Sequence record: OR352946.1
Reading direction: 5' to 3' (one strand)
From: Escherichia phage AV116
DNA: 64,000 bases
In this document: in pieces, positions 6,823 through 64,000 of the stretch
Position numbering within the stretch: the first letter of the stretch is position 1
Layout of the letters: each line of letters starts with the position of its first letter
The notes under the pieces: generated by a model
Told to the model about the DNA's origin: nothing
What the model saw: only the letters and a program-made list of their open reading frames with translations
Databases searched by the model: none
Program-made: the position numbers and the translations under genes

Positions 6823-7046
6823 TATTTTACTAAAGATTCAATATACTCATGAAGAGCTTTAGTCGCTACTGCCCACTTATTCTGATATTCATTTTTCAGA
6901 TTAGCACGAGACTGAACTAACAAGCGGTCATTAGTCGGAGGCAAAGATTCTAATCGTTGAATCTGGCGTCCATAAATCATAGCCGCCATTTCAGATTCAT
7001 AGATAAGCCCTTTAATGTATTCATGCTGTTCTTTAGTCATTGGCAT
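6822..7046 (-). CDS. hypothetical protein
   Basis: 74-aa ORF. Confidence 0.4.
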   Translation of the reverse strand: MPMTKEQHEYIKGLIYESEMAAMIYGRQIQRLESLPPTNDRLLVQSRANLKNEYQNKWAVATKALHEYIESLVK

Positions 7047-7327
7047 TTTTCCTCTTTTAAACCACTACGATAATAACATAACATAGTCTTCTGGTCATGT
7101 ATATATCTTTTTACGTCGTTTAACCAGATACGAAATTCTTGAGAGTCTTCAAATGGCATTCCAACCCACGGATTACCATCAATAACCTTTACTTGCCATT
7201 TCTGGTTGTATTCGGAAATAGGCGTAGGCCATGAAGGATGTAAAGTTTCTTTAGGGCTTACTGGCACATCCTGAGTACATCCAACTAGGAGACCAATAGA
7301 TAATACAGCCACAGTTAATTTAATCAT
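7037..7327 (-). CDS. putative lipoprotein
   Basis: 96 aa; signal peptide with lipobox LLVGC near N-terminus. Confidence 0.45.
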   Translation of the reverse strand: MIKLTVAVLSIGLLVGCTQDVPVSPKETLHPSWPTPISEYNQKWQVKVIDGNPWVGMPFEDSQEFRIWLNDVKRYIHDQKTMLCYYRSGLKEEKCQ

Positions 7328-7680
7328 TCTGAGAGCTTCCTGAGGTCTTCTGCAAAGGAATCGAAGGACCTGTTGATTTGTTTTTCGACCAATCCTGGCT
7401 TACTTGCCACCACGTTCTTCTTCTTCGAATCCTTACGGAGCTTTTCATTTTCGGCCTTAAGTTGGTCAACTAAAACACGGTTCTTATAAGTCATTTCTTC
7501 GATTGACTGATATTGAACCTTGAAGTCGTCTAATACTTTAGCATTGTTTTTAGCAGCCTCTTTGACAGAAGCTAATTCAGTATTCAACGAATCAACTTTG
7601 TTGTTTAAGACAACTATTGTTACAGTAGAAACTAGAGCAAAAGCGGCTACTATAGCGTAAATCGGATTTACTTTAAGCAT
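7324..7680 (-). CDS. hypothetical membrane-anchored coiled-coil protein
   Basis: 118 aa; N-terminal hydrophobic helix followed by K/E-rich heptad-like sequence. Confidence 0.4.
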   Translation of the reverse strand: MLKVNPIYAIVAAFALVSTVTIVVLNNKVDSLNTELASVKEAAKNNAKVLDDFKVQYQSIEEMTYKNRVLVDQLKAENEKLRKDSKKKNVVASKPGLVEKQINRSFDSFAEDLRKLSE

Positions 7681-8168
7681 GTTTTAATAATCTCAATGAT
7701 TTCATCTCGGGACAATCCATTGATAAGAACGGTTTTCAAACCATCGCACTGGATTTTGTATGATTCAAACAATACACACAACTCTTCTGCTGTATGATAC
7801 GGACTTGAAATTCCGAGGCGGTTGAATTTGTCGGTAAGAGGGTCGCAAATAATGTAGAATTTTATACCTGCGATATGTACGTTTGGTTGACTAATATTAA
7901 TGAACACATTAGCGTCGTATTTAGTCAAATTGTTTTGAAGAAATTCTACCATGGCATTAACTGCTTCCGGCATCGCTTCGCGTTTCTCTTCAGCGTATCG
8001 GGTGGAATACTCTTTTTGTTTTACTTTCTTTTTAAGATTTTTGGCCAGTGTAACACGTAGGTCGGTAAGATATCCAACTGGACGTCCTTTCTTAAAGACC
8101 CGGATTCCGTCTGTAGAATCACCAAATGCTGCTACAACCATATCGTTAGTAATCAATTGCATATTCAT
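7668..8168 (-). CDS. alc: Alc-like protein (inhibitor of host transcription), probable
   Basis: 166 aa ORF at the T4 alc position between pseT.x genes and rnlA; early promoter at 8197..8229. Confidence 0.55.
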   Translation of the reverse strand: MNMQLITNDMVVAAFGDSTDGIRVFKKGRPVGYLTDLRVTLAKNLKKKVKQKEYSTRYAEEKREAMPEAVNAMVEFLQNNLTKYDANVFINISQPNVHIAGIKFYIICDPLTDKFNRLGISSPYHTAEELCVLFESYKIQCDGLKTVLINGLSRDEIIEIIKTCLK

Positions 8169-8196
8169 AATTTTCTCCTCGTGTTATTGATAAAAG

Positions 8197-8229
8197 CCAT
8201 AGTAACACCATCCTTGGTGTTTGTAAACC
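8197..8229 (-). promoter_or_regulatory. T4-type early promoter (upstream of alc)
   Basis: GTTTACAAACACCAAGGATGGTGTTACTATGG on the minus strand. Confidence 0.55.
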
Positions 8230-8230
8230 A

Positions 8231-9364
<1,134 letters not shown>

Positions 9365-38832: not shown

Positions 38833-39642
38833 TTAACAACTTCGTCGCATTCTAACCAGCCGTAGTGTGCATCGCGTCATCATCCATGTTTGTTCTTTAA
38901 TAACACTTCCGATTGGATATACAATACCACCATAAACAGCCATGATATTACCACGTTCACCCCATGGAGCTTCCTTGGCCAAATATACATCGTCAAATTC
39001 TGGGAAGTATTTAATATCTTTAACACCACGAACTTCTGCAATATCACCTAGAGGACGCATAACATAAGCAATTTCGGATGCGAACTTTTCAAAATCTTCT
39101 GGGTTAACAGGCACAACTACTTCAACGCCGGTCCGGTCATCAGGACCCATCTTATCTACGAAGGTTGGCTTAATCTGTGGACCCGTGTCATCTTGGTAGA
39201 TTACGTAACCACGAACTTCACCGTTGTGATAAGACGTAAGGTTAAACGTATCGGTATATGCTAATGGAGCTTTAGAGCCGAGTCCGAATCCACCAATGAA
39301 ATCGTTACTCGATGTTTTAGTTGAAGCAAAATATGAGTTATAGATTCCTGGCTCTTCGTCATTACCTCGAATGGTGAAATCACTCATACCAGGACCAAAG
39401 TCTCGAACTACAAAACGTGGGTCTAAACGACCTGGAGCCTGAACAATAAACTTATCAGTGCAACCATTAAGAATTTGTCCATCGATACAGTTTGTGATTA
39501 ATTCACGTACACAAGCCAATTCTTTGTTTGTATAAAGGTCATTAGACAAAATCTTATAAACTTTGCTATTGCCTTGAATAGTAAATGCTGTGCTCTTACC
39601 GCCTGAACCAATAATCGTTTCTTTAGCCGTTTCGATAATCAT
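38833..39642 (-). pseudogene. rIIA: rIIA-like protein, N-terminal GHKL-ATPase region only (premature stop / frame change)
   Basis: Bergerat-fold motifs [27 protein letters not shown]; ORF stops after 269 codons and protein-like sequence continues in the +1 frame (38691..38876). Confidence 0.5.
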
Positions 39643-39654
39643 GTTTTTCTCTCA

Positions 39655-39885
39655 TCACAAGTTACGTTTAAAAATTTCTGCCACTTCGAGAAGTTCTTCT
39701 TTAGTAGCTGTGTCGGTTTGTATTTTATATCGAATTTCCTTAAAGCGTTCTTTAAAGGCTTCAGCTGATTCGATATCAAAAAATCTTTGGATAAGCCGGA
39801 ATTCCCGGAGCACTGCTTTATCAAAAAGTTCCAAGTCCACGTTATATGTTCTCATAATATTCTCTTCAGTAGATTCCTGAGGCAC
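39655..39885 (-). CDS. hypothetical protein (rIIA.1 position)
   Basis: 76-aa ORF immediately upstream of the rIIA-like ORF. Confidence 0.4.
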   Translation of the reverse strand: MPQESTEENIMRTYNVDLELFDKAVLREFRLIQRFFDIESAEAFKERFKEIRYKIQTDTATKEELLEVAEIFKRNL

Positions 39886-39947
39886 TATTACTAAAGACCA
39901 TATAATCTATCATCTTATGTGTAATAGTGCCTCAGGCGATTCAGGAT

Positions 39948-41048
39948 TTACGCTGTGAAGATTTTATCCCACATCGCAACAACTGCATCTCGATTATACT
40001 TCTTCCATACTGCTTCAGCACGTTTAACTCGAGCTTCGTATGTGTCAGTGAATTCTAATACAGCTTTTGTGTAAAGCGCAACTACTTCTTTCTTAGGAGT
40101 AGAGGAATCAATTTCTACACGCACAGTATCTGGGTCGTATTCGAATGTCGCATGAGGATAATCCTTAAAAACTAACTGGATTACAGGGACACCTTTAGAG
40201 ATGGCTTCAATAGAACTATTCTCTACCGTACCTGTGTCAGGACACGTATTAATAAGTGCTTTAGCTGTTTTAAGACGTTCCATGATTTCACTATGTGGAG
40301 CATCAATAATAACAGGATACTTAGCCGGTGGTGCCCATTTACTAGGACAGTATCCTGCACCATTTTCGCCTAGTGCTTTAATCGCTTCAAGAGCAACATC
40401 AGTGCGACGCATTTTAGTGTCATAACGTTGGGCACTAATAATCAAATCAGTTGCTGGGAGAACTTCTGGCTTTTCGGTCAAACAAATAACCGGGTAGTCA
40501 TCATGTTCAAATAATGGATTTTCACGCCAGTAATCATAATCAATGCTATCAGTAAGAGCTGAAGTCATATGGCAATATTTACGTTCAAATTCACGGAATG
40601 CTTTAGTAGGAGCATAGCTCTTACCACCGTATTTGTGGGTAAGAATAGTTTGTTTCCAAATTTCTACAATACCGCGAGATACAGGCTCAAATGGAGTTGC
40701 CATAAAATTTCTATGAACACTGGATAAACCGGCATCTTTAATTGCGTTAACAGTTAGTTTAGTCGGTTCCATAGTAACAACAAAATCGTATTCATGGATG
40801 CCGGCTAGTTCAACAATCTTACGAGCCATAGTATAACTCATACCTAGACTGAATTTAGTCAGATGACCAACAGGATGATGATTAACTTTCCAGTCACCAA
40901 ACGTGTCATTATCAAAGCCGATATAATCAATATCAGCACCGATGGACACAAGATATTTCAACACATTTAAATGTACTGCTTCAAGGCCACCTTGTACACG
41001 GTCAGGATTAAATGGGACTGCACGAGATGGGATAAACATAACTTTCAT
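39948..41048 (-). CDS. putative GT-B fold glycosyltransferase
   Basis: 366 aa; C-terminal ENSSIEAISKGVPVIQ resembles the GT-B E-x(n)-E/A-x-x-G-x-PV donor-binding motif; no counterpart at this position in T4. Confidence 0.5.
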   Translation of the reverse strand: MKVMFIPSRAVPFNPDRVQGGLEAVHLNVLKYLVSIGADIDYIGFDNDTFGDWKVNHHPVGHLTKFSLGMSYTMARKIVELAGIHEYDFVVTMEPTKLTVNAIKDAGLSSVHRNFMATPFEPVSRGIVEIWKQTILTHKYGGKSYAPTKAFREFERKYCHMTSALTDSIDYDYWRENPLFEHDDYPVICLTEKPEVLPATDLIISAQRYDTKMRRTDVALEAIKALGENGAGYCPSKWAPPAKYPVIIDAPHSEIMERLKTAKALINTCPDTGTVENSSIEAISKGVPVIQLVFKDYPHATFEYDPDTVRVEIDSSTPKKEVVALYTKAVLEFTDTYEARVKRAEAVWKKYNRDAVVAMWDKIFTA

Positions 41049-41059
41049 AATTAAGCCTT

Positions 41060-41092
41060 ATTAAAATTAAAATGAAGCTCCCGAAGGAGCTT
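41060..41092 (-). terminator. intrinsic terminator downstream of HNH endonuclease gene
   Basis: AAGCTCCTTCGGGAGCTT hairpin followed by U-rich tract on the minus strand. Confidence 0.55.
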
Positions 41093-41888
41093 AGGACATC
41101 CAACACATTTTATAACCTTTGCAGGTTCTGTTAGGATTATTTAATGCTTTCAATATATTAGAAGACCCTATATCTAAATACTCCCTTAATTCATAAAGAT
41201 AGTTAAAATCAATAGTTTCACCTGTTTTTACACTTGTGATTCTTATAGGCCTTCTTTCATATTTAGATTTATACAACTCTCTAGTCTTAGCTTTAGTTTC
41301 TTCTGACCTAGGAGTGTATGGTTTAAATCCTTTTGTTTTAAATGTTTCCATTCTTGATTTAGTTATTTTATCCTGGTGTTCTTTTGTTTTTACAGGTGCT
41401 TTTCGCCCATTCTCCCAAGATAACTTGTTGGCCTGTATTATTTTATCTATTGCTTCTTGCGTATGAGTTTTACCATAAAATGGATTTAATTCGCCTATAC
41501 GTTGTGAAGCAATATGTGACATTAATTCTCTTGTTGCTTTAGTATGTTTTTTACCTTTAAATGGATTGCCATTTTTAGCAATCCATTCTTTCATAAATCT
41601 AGAGTGCTCTTTAGAGAATTCTTGTTTAAGCCAATCATAATCTCTAGAATTTCTAGCTCCCATGTAAAAAGCTCTAATAGCCATAAGCATAGAACGGTTC
41701 TTATGAATTTTATAAAGCAATAAATGGGCGATAAAATGCTCTCTAGGGGTCATTTTAACTAGATTTGATTTAGCATTACTCCCACCCATAGATTTAGGCA
41801 AAATATGGTGAGTTTCAGTATAATTAGGAATAGTGCTGCGGTTTTTAGCCGCAGCGATAAGTTTATCATAAATTTTACGATAATTCAT
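41091..41888 (-). CDS. HNH homing endonuclease (MobA-like); start taken at MNYRKIY, TAATG-coupled to gene 39 stop
   Basis: THHILPKSMGG...N...REHFIAH HNH motif; paralogue of ORF 13933..14568. Confidence 0.7.
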   Translation of the reverse strand: MNYRKIYDKLIAAAKNRSTIPNYTETHHILPKSMGGSNAKSNLVKMTPREHFIAHLLLYKIHKNRSMLMAIRAFYMGARNSRDYDWLKQEFSKEHSRFMKEWIAKNGNPFKGKKHTKATRELMSHIASQRIGELNPFYGKTHTQEAIDKIIQANKLSWENGRKAPVKTKEHQDKITKSRMETFKTKGFKPYTPRSEETKAKTRELYKSKYERRPIRITSVKTGETIDFNYLYELREYLDIGSSNILKALNNPNRTCKGYKMCWMS

Positions 41889-43711
41889 TATCCTAGCATC
41901 CAATCTTTACGGAGTTCAGGGTCGTTACCCATGAGCATTTCAAATAGTTCTTTCCAATTTTCAGGAAGTTTAACTACGTCGTACACAGGGTTTTGAATCA
42001 TTTCTTTATATTCATCCCGCTGAAGTGAGCCCAATCCCTTGATGTATCGAATACTATGCTTAGGCAGTGTATCTTTAACTTCTTCATACTCAGCTACAGT
42101 ATAAAACCATTTTTGAGTTTTGCCAATTTGTGCAATAATTACAGGCGTTTTAACAAAGCGAATACGTCCTTGTTCAAACAATTCAGGCCAATTACTAAAG
42201 AAAGCAAGCAAAGCCGGATAAATACTTCCAAGGCCGTCATGATCGGCATCGGTCATAATTGCAATATTACGGTAGTTCGTATTCTCTGCCTTTTCACCAA
42301 GAATAAGACCCGTGATAGCACAGATATCAAAGAGCTCTTTGTTCTTCATCATATCGGCATATGACATACCCCAGCTATTCATCACCTTACCACGTAATGG
42401 GAATCCGCCGTGTAGTTCACGGTCACGAACATCAATGAGATAACCAATTGCCGAATCACCTTCTGTTAAAAACAATGTCGTATCTGCATCTTTACCACAT
42501 TGGTTAGCTTTAATATGCTTATGAACCTTAGCTTTAGTTGCCTTTTTAGCTGCTTTAGTTTCTGCAGCCTTTTCTGCTGCCAATTTACGAGCTAATGCGG
42601 CTTCAATTATAGGCATTAAAACTGCGTCAGAATTCAAAATATTTTTTGCCAATTTTTTTGTATCTAATTTAATATGCGTCCGAATTTCGCCATAAGGACT
42701 TGTTAAACGCTCTTTGGTTTGGGAATCAAAACGAAGGTTCTTCATTCCACGAACGAACATTAAGAGAGTGAGACATTCCTTGATTCGCGCTTTAGTCACG
42801 TCGATTTTATATTTGCGTTTAATAGCCGGAATTAATTCTTCGCTAATGTCGTCCATCACACATTCAATGTGATGACCACCGTTTTTGGTATGGATGTTAT
42901 TCACATAAGTTAAATGACGGAAGCCATCTGGTGACCGTCCAATGGCAATAGAGCATCCGTCTTGTTCTTGAATGATGGTCTCTTCATCAAATTGTTTAGC
43001 AAACTTCTTAAAGTTACCTTGAATCTTTTTGCCATTAAATTTAAATTCAATACCAGGATAAACGACCGCCAATGTTTGGAGCCGGTCTATAGTAATATCT
43101 TGGTATATTTTTTCAAATTGATTCATTTCAAAATGTGAGAAATCAGGAATAAACTCGACCTTAGTACCGTTGTTTTTAGACGGCTTAGATTTCCAAGAAA
43201 TATTATCAGCGTTATTAGAACAATTAACGGTCAATTCATTTTTACCATCTGAAGTAGTGCCAACAAAAGAGACAGAAAAAATATTTGTTAATGAAGAACC
43301 GACACCGTTTTGTCCACCCGTAACACGTTCTTTGTCGTCACCAAAGTTGCCACCGGCTTTTGTACGTGTCCACGCCGCAACTGGTCCTGGAATTTCTTCT
43401 CCTTCAGGAGTAATAACTGTTTCTTGAGGAATACCTCGACCATTATCTTCAACAGTCACTTTATTAGAATTTAAATCAATACTAACGGAAATTTTATTAG
43501 CATATTTGAAATTGGTTCGAATAGCTTCGTCTACTGAGTTGTCAATAATTTCATCAATTAATTTGAGAACACCTGCAACATATTTAACCTTTTTAAATTC
43601 ACCGAATAGGAAACGTTCTTGTTCTTCATTGGCAACACTTCCAATATACATGCCAGGACGCTTCAAACAATGCTCTTTATCAGATAGCATTTCAATTTTA
43701 TTATCAATCAT
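41888..43711 (-). CDS. 39: DNA topoisomerase II large subunit gp39, unsplit (includes the region encoded by T4 gene 60)
   Basis: GHKL ATPase motifs (LIDEIIDNSVDE, DNGRGIP) plus C-terminal TOPRIM region IMTDADHDGLGSIYPALLAFFSNWPELFEQGRIRFVKTP matching recalled T4 gp60. Confidence 0.85.
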   Translation of the reverse strand: MIDNKIEMLSDKEHCLKRPGMYIGSVANEEQERFLFGEFKKVKYVAGVLKLIDEIIDNSVDEAIRTNFKYANKISVSIDLNSNKVTVEDNGRGIPQETVITPEGEEIPGPVAAWTRTKAGGNFGDDKERVTGGQNGVGSSLTNIFSVSFVGTTSDGKNELTVNCSNNADNISWKSKPSKNNGTKVEFIPDFSHFEMNQFEKIYQDITIDRLQTLAVVYPGIEFKFNGKKIQGNFKKFAKQFDEETIIQEQDGCSIAIGRSPDGFRHLTYVNNIHTKNGGHHIECVMDDISEELIPAIKRKYKIDVTKARIKECLTLLMFVRGMKNLRFDSQTKERLTSPYGEIRTHIKLDTKKLAKNILNSDAVLMPIIEAALARKLAAEKAAETKAAKKATKAKVHKHIKANQCGKDADTTLFLTEGDSAIGYLIDVRDRELHGGFPLRGKVMNSWGMSYADMMKNKELFDICAITGLILGEKAENTNYRNIAIMTDADHDGLGSIYPALLAFFSNWPELFEQGRIRFVKTPVIIAQIGKTQKWFYTVAEYEEVKDTLPKHSIRYIKGLGSLQRDEYKEMIQNPVYDVVKLPENWKELFEMLMGNDPELRKDWMLG

Positions 43712-44387
43712 TAGATTTTCTCTCAAATTGCATGACTATATTTTTGTATGAACCTTCCGGAAATCCACGTTTAATGCTTTCTTTAGCAAATTTCCCAACC
43801 TTTGGTTTATCCAATTCTAACCATAATTTATATAAAGCAGATTCATATTCCCATACAGGACTTTTACGATTTTTAAGCCCACACTTTATAAGCGCTTCCT
43901 TTGTATGTTTCTTATTATAAAATGGATTGTTTTTGCCACTCATTGCTTTAGAATGTTCCGGGCGCTTAATTCCATACATCGGATTAAGATCGCCTTTCTT
44001 GATAACGGATTGTAGTTCAATAGTTTCTTCAGAGTGATTGTGTCCATAAAATGGATTTAACTCTTTTGAAACATCCATACCAAAGCACCCATCGACTGTG
44101 GCATAAGACATGTTGAAAAATTTTTCAGATTTAACCACATTATGCAATTTCTGGTAATACAACTCACAAAACGTCGCTTCTTCCCGTGTATCAAATTCGC
44201 CAATAATACATGAATCAAATAAATGAGGATTATCTTTTATCTCTTTATCATAAATTTGTTTATATTTTTTCGACTTTACCGTACCATGATAGTGATTGTT
44301 TGTATGTTTATCAAGATAAGTAGACCCTATATAAAACGGTGGCAACTTATCGCCTGTGTATATTGTTAAGTATGTTATGTATTTCAT
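43704..44387 (-). CDS. GIY-YIG homing endonuclease (Seg-like)
   Basis: 227 aa; YITYLTIYTGDKLPPFYIGST motif and three NPFYG/NPMYG repeats typical of Seg/I-TevI DNA-binding modules; overlaps gene 39 start. Confidence 0.65.
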   Translation of the reverse strand: MKYITYLTIYTGDKLPPFYIGSTYLDKHTNNHYHGTVKSKKYKQIYDKEIKDNPHLFDSCIIGEFDTREEATFCELYYQKLHNVVKSEKFFNMSYATVDGCFGMDVSKELNPFYGHNHSEETIELQSVIKKGDLNPMYGIKRPEHSKAMSGKNNPFYNKKHTKEALIKCGLKNRKSPVWEYESALYKLWLELDKPKVGKFAKESIKRGFPEGSYKNIVMQFERKSND

Positions 44388-53587: not shown

Positions 53588-54109
53588 TCAGTAACCATTA
53601 TCCTGACGTTCAAAGTTGTGTTGGTTTTTCAAGTAGTAAAGTTTAAAGATTTCTTCAGCGGAAAGACCCAAACCTTGGAACATATTCAGAACAAAGTGGA
53701 GAATATCAATCATCTCGAATTTAATTTCAAGCTGGTCTTCAGGAGACAGTTCATCGATACGACGATTACGATATTCAGCATGTTGTGCTTTCCATGGCTT
53801 CCACACAGAGCTGGCAGCTTTTTCACCGTTGGACATACCACCGAGTGAAGTCAGCAGTTCACGGAATTCATCATCAATATAATCTTTCTGATTACGCAGC
53901 CAATCAACAACATCACCGGCAGTAGCCAATTCATCAGGATGTTTGTTATGTTCAGGCTTGTCATTTGCCAGACGAACCTGTAAAGATTTCTGCATATCAA
54001 GCATTACCTGCAGTGGGTCTTTATCTTCGTGAATCAGAGCATTAAAATAAGCTTCTTCTGCTTTATCAACACCAGAAATAAGTTGTGAACATTCGTTAAA
54101 GTGTGCCAT
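53588..54109 (-). CDS. 56: dCTP pyrophosphatase gp56 (MazG-like); start at MAHFNECSQL
   Basis: MAHFNECSQLISGVDKAEEAY...SPEDQLEIKFEMIDILHFVLNMF matches recalled T4 gp56. Confidence 0.8.
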   Translation of the reverse strand: MAHFNECSQLISGVDKAEEAYFNALIHEDKDPLQVMLDMQKSLQVRLANDKPEHNKHPDELATAGDVVDWLRNQKDYIDDEFRELLTSLGGMSNGEKAASSVWKPWKAQHAEYRNRRIDELSPEDQLEIKFEMIDILHFVLNMFQGLGLSAEEIFKLYYLKNQHNFERQDNGY

Positions 54110-61977: not shown

Positions 61978-62526
61978 TTAACGAGCCCATTTGATAATTT
62001 CTGTAATCAAATAATTACGTTCGCTTGCATTAAATCCTATAACTTTGTTAGCACCATCATGATTAAGTAATTGATACGTTTGGATTTTGTTATGAATTGC
62101 AAACTCTTCAAAATGTGAAATGACTGTATTAAAACCGAATGAAGACAAAGTAATAAGGTCGTCTTCAAAACTTTCAGTCATTTCGTTACGTGTTAAAATA
62201 ATTGTGAACACATCATGGTTTTGGCAAAGACGAACATAATCCTGTTCATAAACGTCAAGAACCGAGTCCGCATCTTGTCGAATACGTCCATAAACCCAGT
62301 TACTAATATATCCACGGTCTAATAGATAAATCTTAGTAGGGTCTAAATAATTCAACATTGTTTCGAAACAGCCAACTTCATTTCGAGACTTAACATCGAA
62401 ACGTCCATCAACCGTTCGTTTAGGGAAATCAATCTTTACATATCTTTCACTAATTTCCATTATGTCATTAATGAAAGTTGTTTTACCAGCATTATCTGGG
62501 CCATCTACTAAAATAATTTTAGCCAT
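61978..62526 (-). CDS. P-loop nucleotide/nucleoside kinase-like protein
   Basis: 182 aa; Walker A DGPDNAGKTT at N-terminus and LDRGY motif reminiscent of thymidylate/deoxynucleoside kinases. Confidence 0.5.
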   Translation of the reverse strand: MAKIILVDGPDNAGKTTFINDIMEISERYVKIDFPKRTVDGRFDVKSRNEVGCFETMLNYLDPTKIYLLDRGYISNWVYGRIRQDADSVLDVYEQDYVRLCQNHDVFTIILTRNEMTESFEDDLITLSSFGFNTVISHFEEFAIHNKIQTYQLLNHDGANKVIGFNASERNYLITEIIKWAR

Positions 62527-62527
62527 T

Positions 62528-63427
62528 TTATTCCTCGATTACGACATCTTCGTATTTAGGTATATTATACGGTGAAGAAATTAAAGCGTTAAAGTAGATG
62601 AACTCACCAAGACCTGGATGGAATACTTCTTCAGGATTTTCGAAATATTGAATCTTCGGACGTCCTTTAAGAATTTGATAGTACTCAGTTTTAGTTGGTT
62701 TAAAAATTCGAATCAACGCTTCTTCAGGATACTTATTTCTGTCGAAGCTATTATTTGGATCGGTTATATAAAGCGGTTGGCCTAATTGAATTGCACATTC
62801 AACCACTTGTTCAAAACGATAGCACGGGTCACTAATTCGAAATGGATGAAAAATACCATCTAGATGAATAGGAGCCAAATCACCTACAAGACGCTGCATG
62901 ATGGAAGGACGTATAACTTTCTGCGTTACGATAATCTTATTACCATCTGCACCTGCGTTAACCAGCACTTCTTTTTGACGTTCATTCAACACAGTAGTTT
63001 GAAGTGAACGATTAACCGACAACATATCAGTTTTTAAGAATTCGTCAATATAAAAACGTGGTTTATTAGGGTCTGCAGTGATATTGAAATTGAATTCTAC
63101 ATCAAAAGCGCCGTCATATCCAGTGATATCTGTGATTAGAAAATCACAATCATAATAAGCAATTAATGAATCAACCACAAATTCATTTTCAGACCAGAAA
63201 TATTTACGAGTGTTATACGCGTTATCTTTATACCATAATGGAACAAACTTAAATTCTGGAAAAAGACGTTCGCATTCTTTAATATCAGATGCATTACGTG
63301 GATATGTAATCACATCACCCGGATTAGCACGGTGCAAATGAAGTTGGAAGTTGCCATCCTTAAGGATAGCATACTGTCCAGTTTCATAAGACCGCATACT
63401 CAAGATAGGTACGCGGAAAATAGCCAT
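62528..63427 (-). CDS. hypothetical protein occupying the locus where T4 has beta-glucosyltransferase
   Basis: 299-aa ORF between uvsX and gene 42; no similarity to recalled T4 Bgt. Confidence 0.45.
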   Translation of the reverse strand: MAIFRVPILSMRSYETGQYAILKDGNFQLHLHRANPGDVITYPRNASDIKECERLFPEFKFVPLWYKDNAYNTRKYFWSENEFVVDSLIAYYDCDFLITDITGYDGAFDVEFNFNITADPNKPRFYIDEFLKTDMLSVNRSLQTTVLNERQKEVLVNAGADGNKIIVTQKVIRPSIMQRLVGDLAPIHLDGIFHPFRISDPCYRFEQVVECAIQLGQPLYITDPNNSFDRNKYPEEALIRIFKPTKTEYYQILKGRPKIQYFENPEEVFHPGLGEFIYFNALISSPYNIPKYEDVVIEE

Positions 63428-64000
63428 TAGTCAAGGAATCCTTTAACATAATCAAAATCACGTTCAAACACATGGGCACTTACCATGGTATGAGTATAAT
63501 CACCAACTTCTACACCACATTCGTTAGCGATATAATGAAGTAATTTTCCTTGGAGATAAAAATCCAACTGCATAACAACAGCACAGTTCTGGGAACGCAT
63601 ATGACAGTGGGTATAAAGCTTACCGTCACGAATATAATAGGTCACTGAGTCAGTACATGGATATTCAAGCGTTTCGTCTGAATCAAGCAAAGCCTGATCA
63701 GAACTTTCTAGAATTTGGAACACAACTCTTCGGGAGTTAGGCTTCTCTTTAAGTTCTTTTAGAAGAGCTGGTAATTGAGCCGCAATGCGAGGACCATAGA
63801 AAGTGTTGAAGTTCGCCGGCAAAACATCTGATTTTGGTTTAGAAATAAATTTAGCGACATTAGGATATGCCTTAAACGCTTCTTCTGCATTGGTACCACC
63901 AGAAATCATAAACTTCCAGAAGTCTTCGGCATATTCATAAGAGATGCGGTTAATACGTGGGTCGGTCATTTTGAATGATGATGGAGTGTCAACAACTACT
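63427..64000 (-). CDS. 42: dCMP hydroxymethylase gp42 (3' portion; ORF runs off the window end)
   Basis: Thymidylate synthase-family motifs RRVVFQ and YPCTDSVTYYIRDGKLYTHCHMRSQN; reading frame stays open to position 64000. Confidence 0.7.
   Translation of the reverse strand, partial: VVVDTPSSFKMTDPRINRISYEYAEDFWKFMISGGTNAEEAFKAYPNVAKFISKPKSDVLPANFNTFYGPRIAAQLPALLKELKEKPNSRRVVFQILESSDQALLDSDETLEYPCTDSVTYYIRDGKLYTHCHMRSQNCAVVMQLDFYLQGKLLHYIANECGVEVGDYTHTMVSAHVFERDFDYVKGFLD

Follow-up and report, generated by a model that had tools for sequence, protein, structure and literature searches.

The nature of arabinosylated 5-hydroxycytosine, a hypermodified base of phage DNA, has recently been clarified. 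The modification guards T4-like phages against restriction enzymes, the DNA glycosylase Brig1 and type I CRISPR-Cas; it also affects the use of phages in therapy and in sequencing. Arabinose was reported in the DNA of phage RB69 in 2018, and ORF003c was then nominated as the arabinosyltransferase by HMM and Phyre (Thomas et al. 2018; PMC6024577). A 2026 NAR paper (PMC13326640) gives the RB69 base as beta-D-Araf-(1-3)-alpha-D-Araf-O-5-hydroxy-2'-deoxycytidine, proposes gp46:47 as the first (alpha) arabinosyltransferase, lists gp3 as "beta-arabinosyltransferase 2", and describes the RB69-type homologue of T4 gene 42 (RB69 gp48) as a flavin-containing 5-hydroxy-dCMP synthase. The gp3-type glycosyltransferase is proposed to be one of the two transferases that build the modification. 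Among other phages of the genus, Bas46 and Bas47 are reported to be doubly arabinosylated, and Mosigvirus NP to carry mono- and di-arabinosyl-dC at 1:4 (2026 AEM paper). Deleting the Bas46 arabinosyltransferase Aat, the putative counterpart of bas47_0105, reportedly sensitises Bas46 to a defence system. The mono-arabinosylated phage Thanatos is reported with a single ara-GT, of the AraT1 (gp46:47) type (PMC13326640).

Here we analysed a window of 64,000 nucleotides from Escherichia phage AV116 (OR352946.1), in which the initial annotation had pointed to a gene for a 366-aa glycosyltransferase beside the rII locus. The gene is present with the extent and N-terminus given there, and it lies on the minus strand, which had not been named (Table 1). 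It is a real, intact gene and not a chance ORF, since PHROG 8302 matches it over residues 1-366 in a profile search (E 4.8e-218), full-length homologues occur in 209 of the 211 matching phage records, dN/dS against the orthologues of Bas47 and FL18 is 0.10-0.12 (purifying selection), and a Shine-Dalgarno sequence precedes the start codon. The protein is 100% identical in Escherichia phages AV109, AV114 and AV115, and about 96% identical in some 140 further Mosigvirus (RB69-like) phages. The UUCG-loop hairpin just upstream of the ORF has the same sequence in phages with and without an adjoining homing endonuclease. A scan for sigma-70 promoters found 14 sites against 18.6 expected; given this lack of enrichment, we claim no promoter.

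Table 1. Features of the AV116 window discussed in the text (positions in the 64,000-nt window)
Feature	Position	Strand	Remarks
alc homologue	7680..8168		
Truncated rIIA	38833-39642		269-aa ORF with short out-of-frame tail
Perfect 16-bp inverted repeat, CCTGAGGCACTATTAC / GTAATAGTGCCTCAGG	39876..39936	minus	29-nt spacer; between the glycosyltransferase stop codon and rIIA.1
GT-B glycosyltransferase ORF	39948..41048	minus (41048->39948)	366 codons, ATG start; N-terminus MKVMFIPS
Donor-binding helix of C-terminal domain, ENSSIEAISKGVPVIQ	40176..40223	minus	Codons 276-291
Shine-Dalgarno, AAGG	41056..41059	minus	8-11 nt upstream of the glycosyltransferase ATG; read from sequence
UUCG-loop hairpin, then T-rich run	41075..41092	minus	Terminator-like; just upstream of the glycosyltransferase ORF
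Intact HNH + NUMOD3 homing endonuclease	41091..41888	minus	PHROG 655, E 1e-55; between gene 39 and the glycosyltransferase
Second homing-endonuclease-like gene	43704..44387	minus	227 aa; three NUMOD3 motifs; PHROGs 10820 and 314
dCTP pyrophosphatase, gene 56 homologue	53588..54109	minus	Excludes dC from phage DNA
Thymidylate-kinase-like nucleotide kinase, RB69 gp45-like	61978..62526	minus	182 aa; PHROG 761; in arabinosylation cluster (PMC13326640)
AraT1, RB69 gp46:47 orthologue	62528..63427	minus	299 aa; candidate first (alpha) arabinosyltransferase; PHROG 3891 (PMC13326640)
Thymidylate-synthase-family gene, T4 gene 42 counterpart	63427..64000	minus	3' 191 codons; runs off the window end

Judged by sequence match, the gene is one already known, corresponding to RB69 ORF003c/gp3 and to the crystallised HY126 glycosyltransferase. 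RB69 ORF003c/gp3 (NP_861693; 2529-3620 in RB69) and bas47_0105 of Bas47 are its orthologues, at about 96% identity, and both lie, as it does, between rIIA.1 and topoisomerase gene 39. The maps of Bas47 and AV109 give the order rIIB, rIIA, rIIA.1, glycosyltransferase, an HNH homing endonuclease in some phages, and gene 39. The AV116 gene thus shares with the PHROG 8302 family both full-length homology and the Mosigvirus slot. In T4 the interval from rIIA.1 to gene 39 holds only 60, 60.1 and a defective mobA remnant, in agreement with the statement in the initial annotation that T4 has no gene of this size there; the arabinosyltransferase that it gave as reported at about this map position in RB69-type phages is the one that Thomas et al. 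(2018) proposed for ORF003c.

The ORF is 95.6% identical to the chain of PDB 9IQZ (apo) and 9IR0 (with UDP), "phage HY126 glycosyltransferase", both released on 2025-07-16; UDP binding is taken from the PDB title. The two proteins differ at 16 residues, all at variable columns of the family and 13 of them within the stretch 101-191, which belongs to the acceptor-side N-terminal domain. The HY126 structure is probably the one published by He et al. (Nat Chem Biol 2026). A direct assay of this orthologue was not found in the literature searched, which did not take in that paper or Mahler et al. 2025 (Cell Host Microbe). Since the glycosyltransferase was flagged in 2018, its structure has been solved and several papers appeared in 2025-26, another Mosigvirus copy adds no new biology. 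The practical value lies in annotation: the labels carried by most records ("hypothetical protein", "hmC-arabinosyltransferase", "DNA alpha-glucosyltransferase") are outdated, the Bas47 copy being annotated "putative hmC-arabinosyltransferase", and so is the label "dCMP hydroxymethylase" on the neighbouring enzyme.

The Pfam scan of the ORF returned no family at E<=10, the gathering score of PF00534 not being reached, and a scan of 11 family members matched no glycosyltransferase model, with a single sub-threshold GT4-conflict match (E 0.0028); placement of the family therefore rests on structure. Structure comparison of an AlphaFold model built on an 11-sequence alignment (with six sequences aligned, the model was unusable at pLDDT 60) assigned the protein a GT-B fold of two Rossmann domains, closest to GT4 structures, in which the C-terminal domain is the one for UDP, like that of the HY126 structure. 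The nearest solved structures outside the family are PimA, BshA, WaaG and sucrose-phosphate synthase. Word-indexed homologue searches and an exhaustive HMMER search of 1.84 billion representatives recovered only about 10 true family clusters, and gave neither a deep alignment nor a bacterial ancestor of the family.

The C-terminal block ENSSIEAISKGVPVIQ, whose resemblance to a GT-B donor-binding motif had been noticed from the letters alone, is the nucleotide-sugar-binding helix, since a genuine Pfam Glycos_transf_1 protein found as a weak match (P0016) aligns its VSTWPDE-SFGITALEALSRGVP with INTCPDTGTVENSSIEAISKGVP of the ORF. In this alignment E281 falls on the second Glu of EX7E, the motif of GT4 enzymes, and the position of the first Glu is taken by T272, plus a one-residue insertion; E276 lies five residues ahead of E281. 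Across the family, E276, G20-G21 and R208 vary little or not at all. With its first Glu absent, the ORF falls outside the EX7E definition of CAZy GT4 / PF00534. The replaced Glu distinguishes the phage protein from bacterial GT4 enzymes (BshA, PimA, WaaG, MshA and sucrose-phosphate synthase), from which it also differs in its acceptor, presumably a DNA-bound sugar.

The genes listed in the initial annotation as hydroxymethyl-dC machinery (gene 56, alc and the 3' part of gene 42) are all in the window; the hydroxymethyl chemistry there ascribed to them is not supported, RB69 gp48 having been shown to make 5-hydroxy-dCMP. The gene-42 counterpart matches Pfam Thymidylat_synt (E 1e-15). The ORF list gives a complete 180-aa ORF from an internal ATG, yet no stop codon interrupts the frame up to base 63999, and in AV109 the gene encodes 238 aa. 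In many database records this gene is still labelled dCMP hydroxymethylase or thymidylate synthase. A T4-like beta-gt is absent from its usual locus, as had been observed: the slot from uvsX to the gene-42 counterpart holds the 182-aa kinase-like ORF and the 299-aa AraT1 ORF, the latter with no match in Pfam. The remainder of the arabinose cluster, up to the arabinose-5-phosphate isomerase, is found in the near-identical phage AV109. The glycosyltransferase thus co-occurs with a 5-hydroxy-dCMP synthase/UDP-arabinose cluster, of which the window has AraT1, the kinase and the ThyA-like gene.

The two transferase families are distributed differently. AraT1 homologues occur in 348 phage records, from phages of Escherichia, Klebsiella, Serratia, Enterobacter, Acinetobacter and others, whereas the 211 records with the glycosyltransferase family are all of Mosigvirus or Acinetobacter phages, with no Shewanella phages among them. 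Because AraT1 is found in more records and in many more genera, it behaves as the general enzyme, and the gp3-type family as an add-on. The number of copies of the latter matches the length of the arabinose chain: one copy and two arabinoses in RB69, Bas46/47 and NP, two copies and three arabinoses in DLP3 (PMC13326640, PMC12923530, PMC13390438). The tri-arabinosylating Lazarusviruses of Acinetobacter likewise have two copies in tandem.

From these data, we consider it likely that the ORF encodes the second, chain-extending DNA arabinofuranosyltransferase, acting on arabinosylated 5-hydroxycytosine. The soluble GT-B enzyme would bind a UDP-sugar in its C-terminal Rossmann domain and act after replication on DNA whose cytosine is replaced by 5-hydroxycytosine bearing one alpha-arabinofuranose. 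It would add a second arabinofuranose from UDP-Araf, giving the di-arabinosyl-5-hydroxycytosine typical of Mosigvirus DNA, a modification that makes the DNA resistant to restriction enzymes, DNA glycosylases and CRISPR nucleases. Orthology, the GT-B fold, conserved donor-site residues, purifying selection, linkage to the cluster and phage distribution are all seen in our analysis; we infer that this protein takes its sugar from UDP-Araf, acts on DNA and carries out the second step, UDP-Araf and DNA being the known donor and acceptor of its homologues DLP3 gp76 + gp77 (PMC13326640). The initial annotation had proposed a sugar transferase for hmC-DNA. A GT-B arabinosyltransferase involved in DNA modification is supported, but not its hmC substrate nor a role in modifying the base itself, which is 5-hydroxycytosine, with AraT1 as the candidate first enzyme.

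Some observations count against the second-step role. The 366-aa protein is mildly acidic, has no recognisable DNA-binding motif and lacks the first Glu of EX7E. The DLP3 glycosyltransferases are inactive singly, gp76 and gp77 being required together (PMC13326640), and RB69 gp3 is not the specific counterpart of gp77. In addition, the GT4 enzymes that come nearest in structure are retaining, but to form a beta linkage, as proposed, from alpha-linked UDP-D-Araf might need inversion. We speculate that the absent first Glu of EX7E, together with the invariant D88, E94 and E276, could be candidates for the difference between retaining and inverting enzymes.

The original proposal of 2018, with which the annotation "hmC-arabinosyltransferase" also fits, made this protein the primary DNA arabinosyltransferase, placing the first arabinose directly on the modified cytosine. 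We find this unlikely: AraT1 stands beside the ThyA-like gene in about 137 more phage records than have the glycosyltransferase family, the mono-arabinosylated Thanatos is reported to have the AraT1-type enzyme only, copy number of the glycosyltransferase rises with the arabinose chain, and the base is 5-hydroxycytosine, not hmC (PMC13326640, PMC13390438).

An acceptor other than DNA (a lipid or polysaccharide of the host envelope, a small molecule or a protein), with no relation to DNA modification, would fit the mildly acidic pI of the protein (6.15), the lipids, small molecules and polysaccharides used by the enzymes nearest in structure outside the family, and the distance of about 21 kb between the Mosigvirus gene and the arabinose cluster. 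It is nonetheless very improbable, given that every phage found with the family is T4-like and bears the arabinose/5-hydroxy-dCMP cluster as well, that in Acinetobacter phages and in a metagenomic contig its genes lie inside the cluster, and that two homologues, gp76 and gp77, transfer arabinose to DNA in vitro (PMC13326640).

Least of all is the protein a counterpart of T4 alpha-gt or beta-gt that glucosylates hmC-DNA, a scarcely credible reading for which the GT-B fold common to the ORF and both T4 enzymes and the label "DNA alpha-glucosyltransferase" on homologues in HX01 and several Acinetobacter phage records may be cited, but these labels are automatic, the sugar in RB69 DNA is arabinose, with no glucose present (PMC6024577), Mosigvirus cytosine has no hydroxymethyl group (PMC13326640, PMC13390438), and a PDB sequence search at E<=1 detected no similarity of the ORF to T4 alpha-gt or beta-gt. 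The T4 enzymes (GT72 and GT63, respectively) transfer glucose to 5-hydroxymethylcytosine, whereas gp3-type proteins would transfer arabinofuranose in DNA with 5-hydroxycytosine; the T4 acceptor is the base substituent and that of the gp3 type probably a sugar hydroxyl. The map positions differ as well.

The biochemical evidence for an arabinosyltransferase role is indirect and comes from homologues in Acinetobacter phages, where purified DLP3 gp76 + gp77 with UDP-Araf convert RB69 DNA to a tri-arabinosyl form in vitro (PMC13326640), in contrast to the two sugars of Mosigvirus. These two proteins (DLP2_048 and DLP2_047 in DLP2) belong to the same family, with 41-44% identity to the AV116 protein over the full length, 41-42% for the DLP2 counterparts, and, unlike the single Mosigvirus gene, they are tandem paralogues inside the arabinose cluster. 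In DLP2 they span 7001-9296 and are 57% identical to each other. In a neighbour-joining tree the Acinetobacter paralogues group together, and the duplication postdates the split from the Mosigvirus lineage. A published label implies that gp3 is the specific orthologue of DLP3 gp77; we rejected this on the tree and on the identities (42-44% to both paralogues, against 57% between them). Because the Acinetobacter paralogues pair together both in the tree and by identity, gp3 is not one-to-one with gp77 but co-orthologous to both gp76 and gp77. For the paralogues of Acinetobacter T4-like phages, some records give "DNA alpha-glucosyltransferase" and others a hypothetical protein. One of the Acj9 paralogues is split into p082 (222 aa) and p081 (147 aa); possible explanations are a frameshift, a pseudogene and an error in sequencing.

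The DLP2 cluster consists of arabinose-5-P isomerase, pyrophosphorylase/kinase, phosphatase, the ThyA-like gene, AraT1, kinase and the two glycosyltransferases. In the metagenomic contig L007 a family member lies directly ahead of homologues of AraT1 (48%) and of the kinase (48%). Since family members close the DLP2 cluster and adjoin AraT1 and kinase homologues in the contig, the position of the Mosigvirus gene beside rII looks like the relocation of a cluster gene.

Within the AV116 gene, divergence from other Mosigvirus alleles is unevenly spread. Codons 91-240 (about 40329-40778) have a dS of 0.5-0.7, against 0.04-0.15 in the flanks, that is, roughly 4-12 times the synonymous divergence. 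Nucleotide identity to other Mosigvirus alleles is 78-90% in this central segment and 97-100% in the 5' quarter and the UDP-binding 3' third. Positive selection was considered as a cause of the clustered substitutions and rejected, dN/dS being about 0.10 in the divergent segment; for the same reason codons 91-240 are taken as a recombined old allele under purifying selection, and the gene is a mosaic. The AV116 allele of the gene is shared only by AV109, AV114, AV115 and AV118; its older acceptor-side segment could change acceptor or linkage specificity with respect to RB69 and HY126, a possibility to which we give a slim chance. If true, these phages would decorate their DNA differently, for example in mono:di ratio, in linkage or with a third sugar, and the altered specificity would be one more move in their arms race against nucleases that depend on modification.

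The intact HNH homing endonuclease is present in AV109 and absent from Bas47 and FL18, where nothing of the kind separates the glycosyltransferase from gene 39. In the latter two phages gene 39 ends with the same last 12 nucleotides, TGGATGTCCTAA, and is followed by the same 42-nt spacer. At the equivalent position T4 has its defective HNH remnant, mobA. The second homing-endonuclease-like gene is located immediately upstream of gene 39, overlapping its start; its N-terminus is GIY-YIG-like by eye, and AV109 labels it a hypothetical protein.

The window has a 2,524-bp deletion relative to AV109, with its junction at 38867-38875, between 9-bp direct repeats (GCGATGCAC). Lost are the part of rIIA that starts at about codon 257, the whole of rIIB and ~100 nt at the start of the rIIB.1/denB.1 homologue; tblastn with T4 RIIB found no match within the window. 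FL18 (PP400780; Denmark, pig faeces) alone has the identical junction. Since 71 of 1,901 flanking bases nevertheless differ, this suggests either a recurrent microhomology deletion or the spread of the allele by recombination.

Finally, the perfect inverted repeat downstream of the glycosyltransferase gene is predicted to form an RNA hairpin of -36 kcal/mol (z -6.5 against shuffles). It is not a canonical terminator, because no U-run follows. Its arms are identical in Bas47. The GTG start of rIIA.1 annotated in AV109 falls in the 3' arm of the repeat, and Bas47 annotates an ATG 30 nt downstream.
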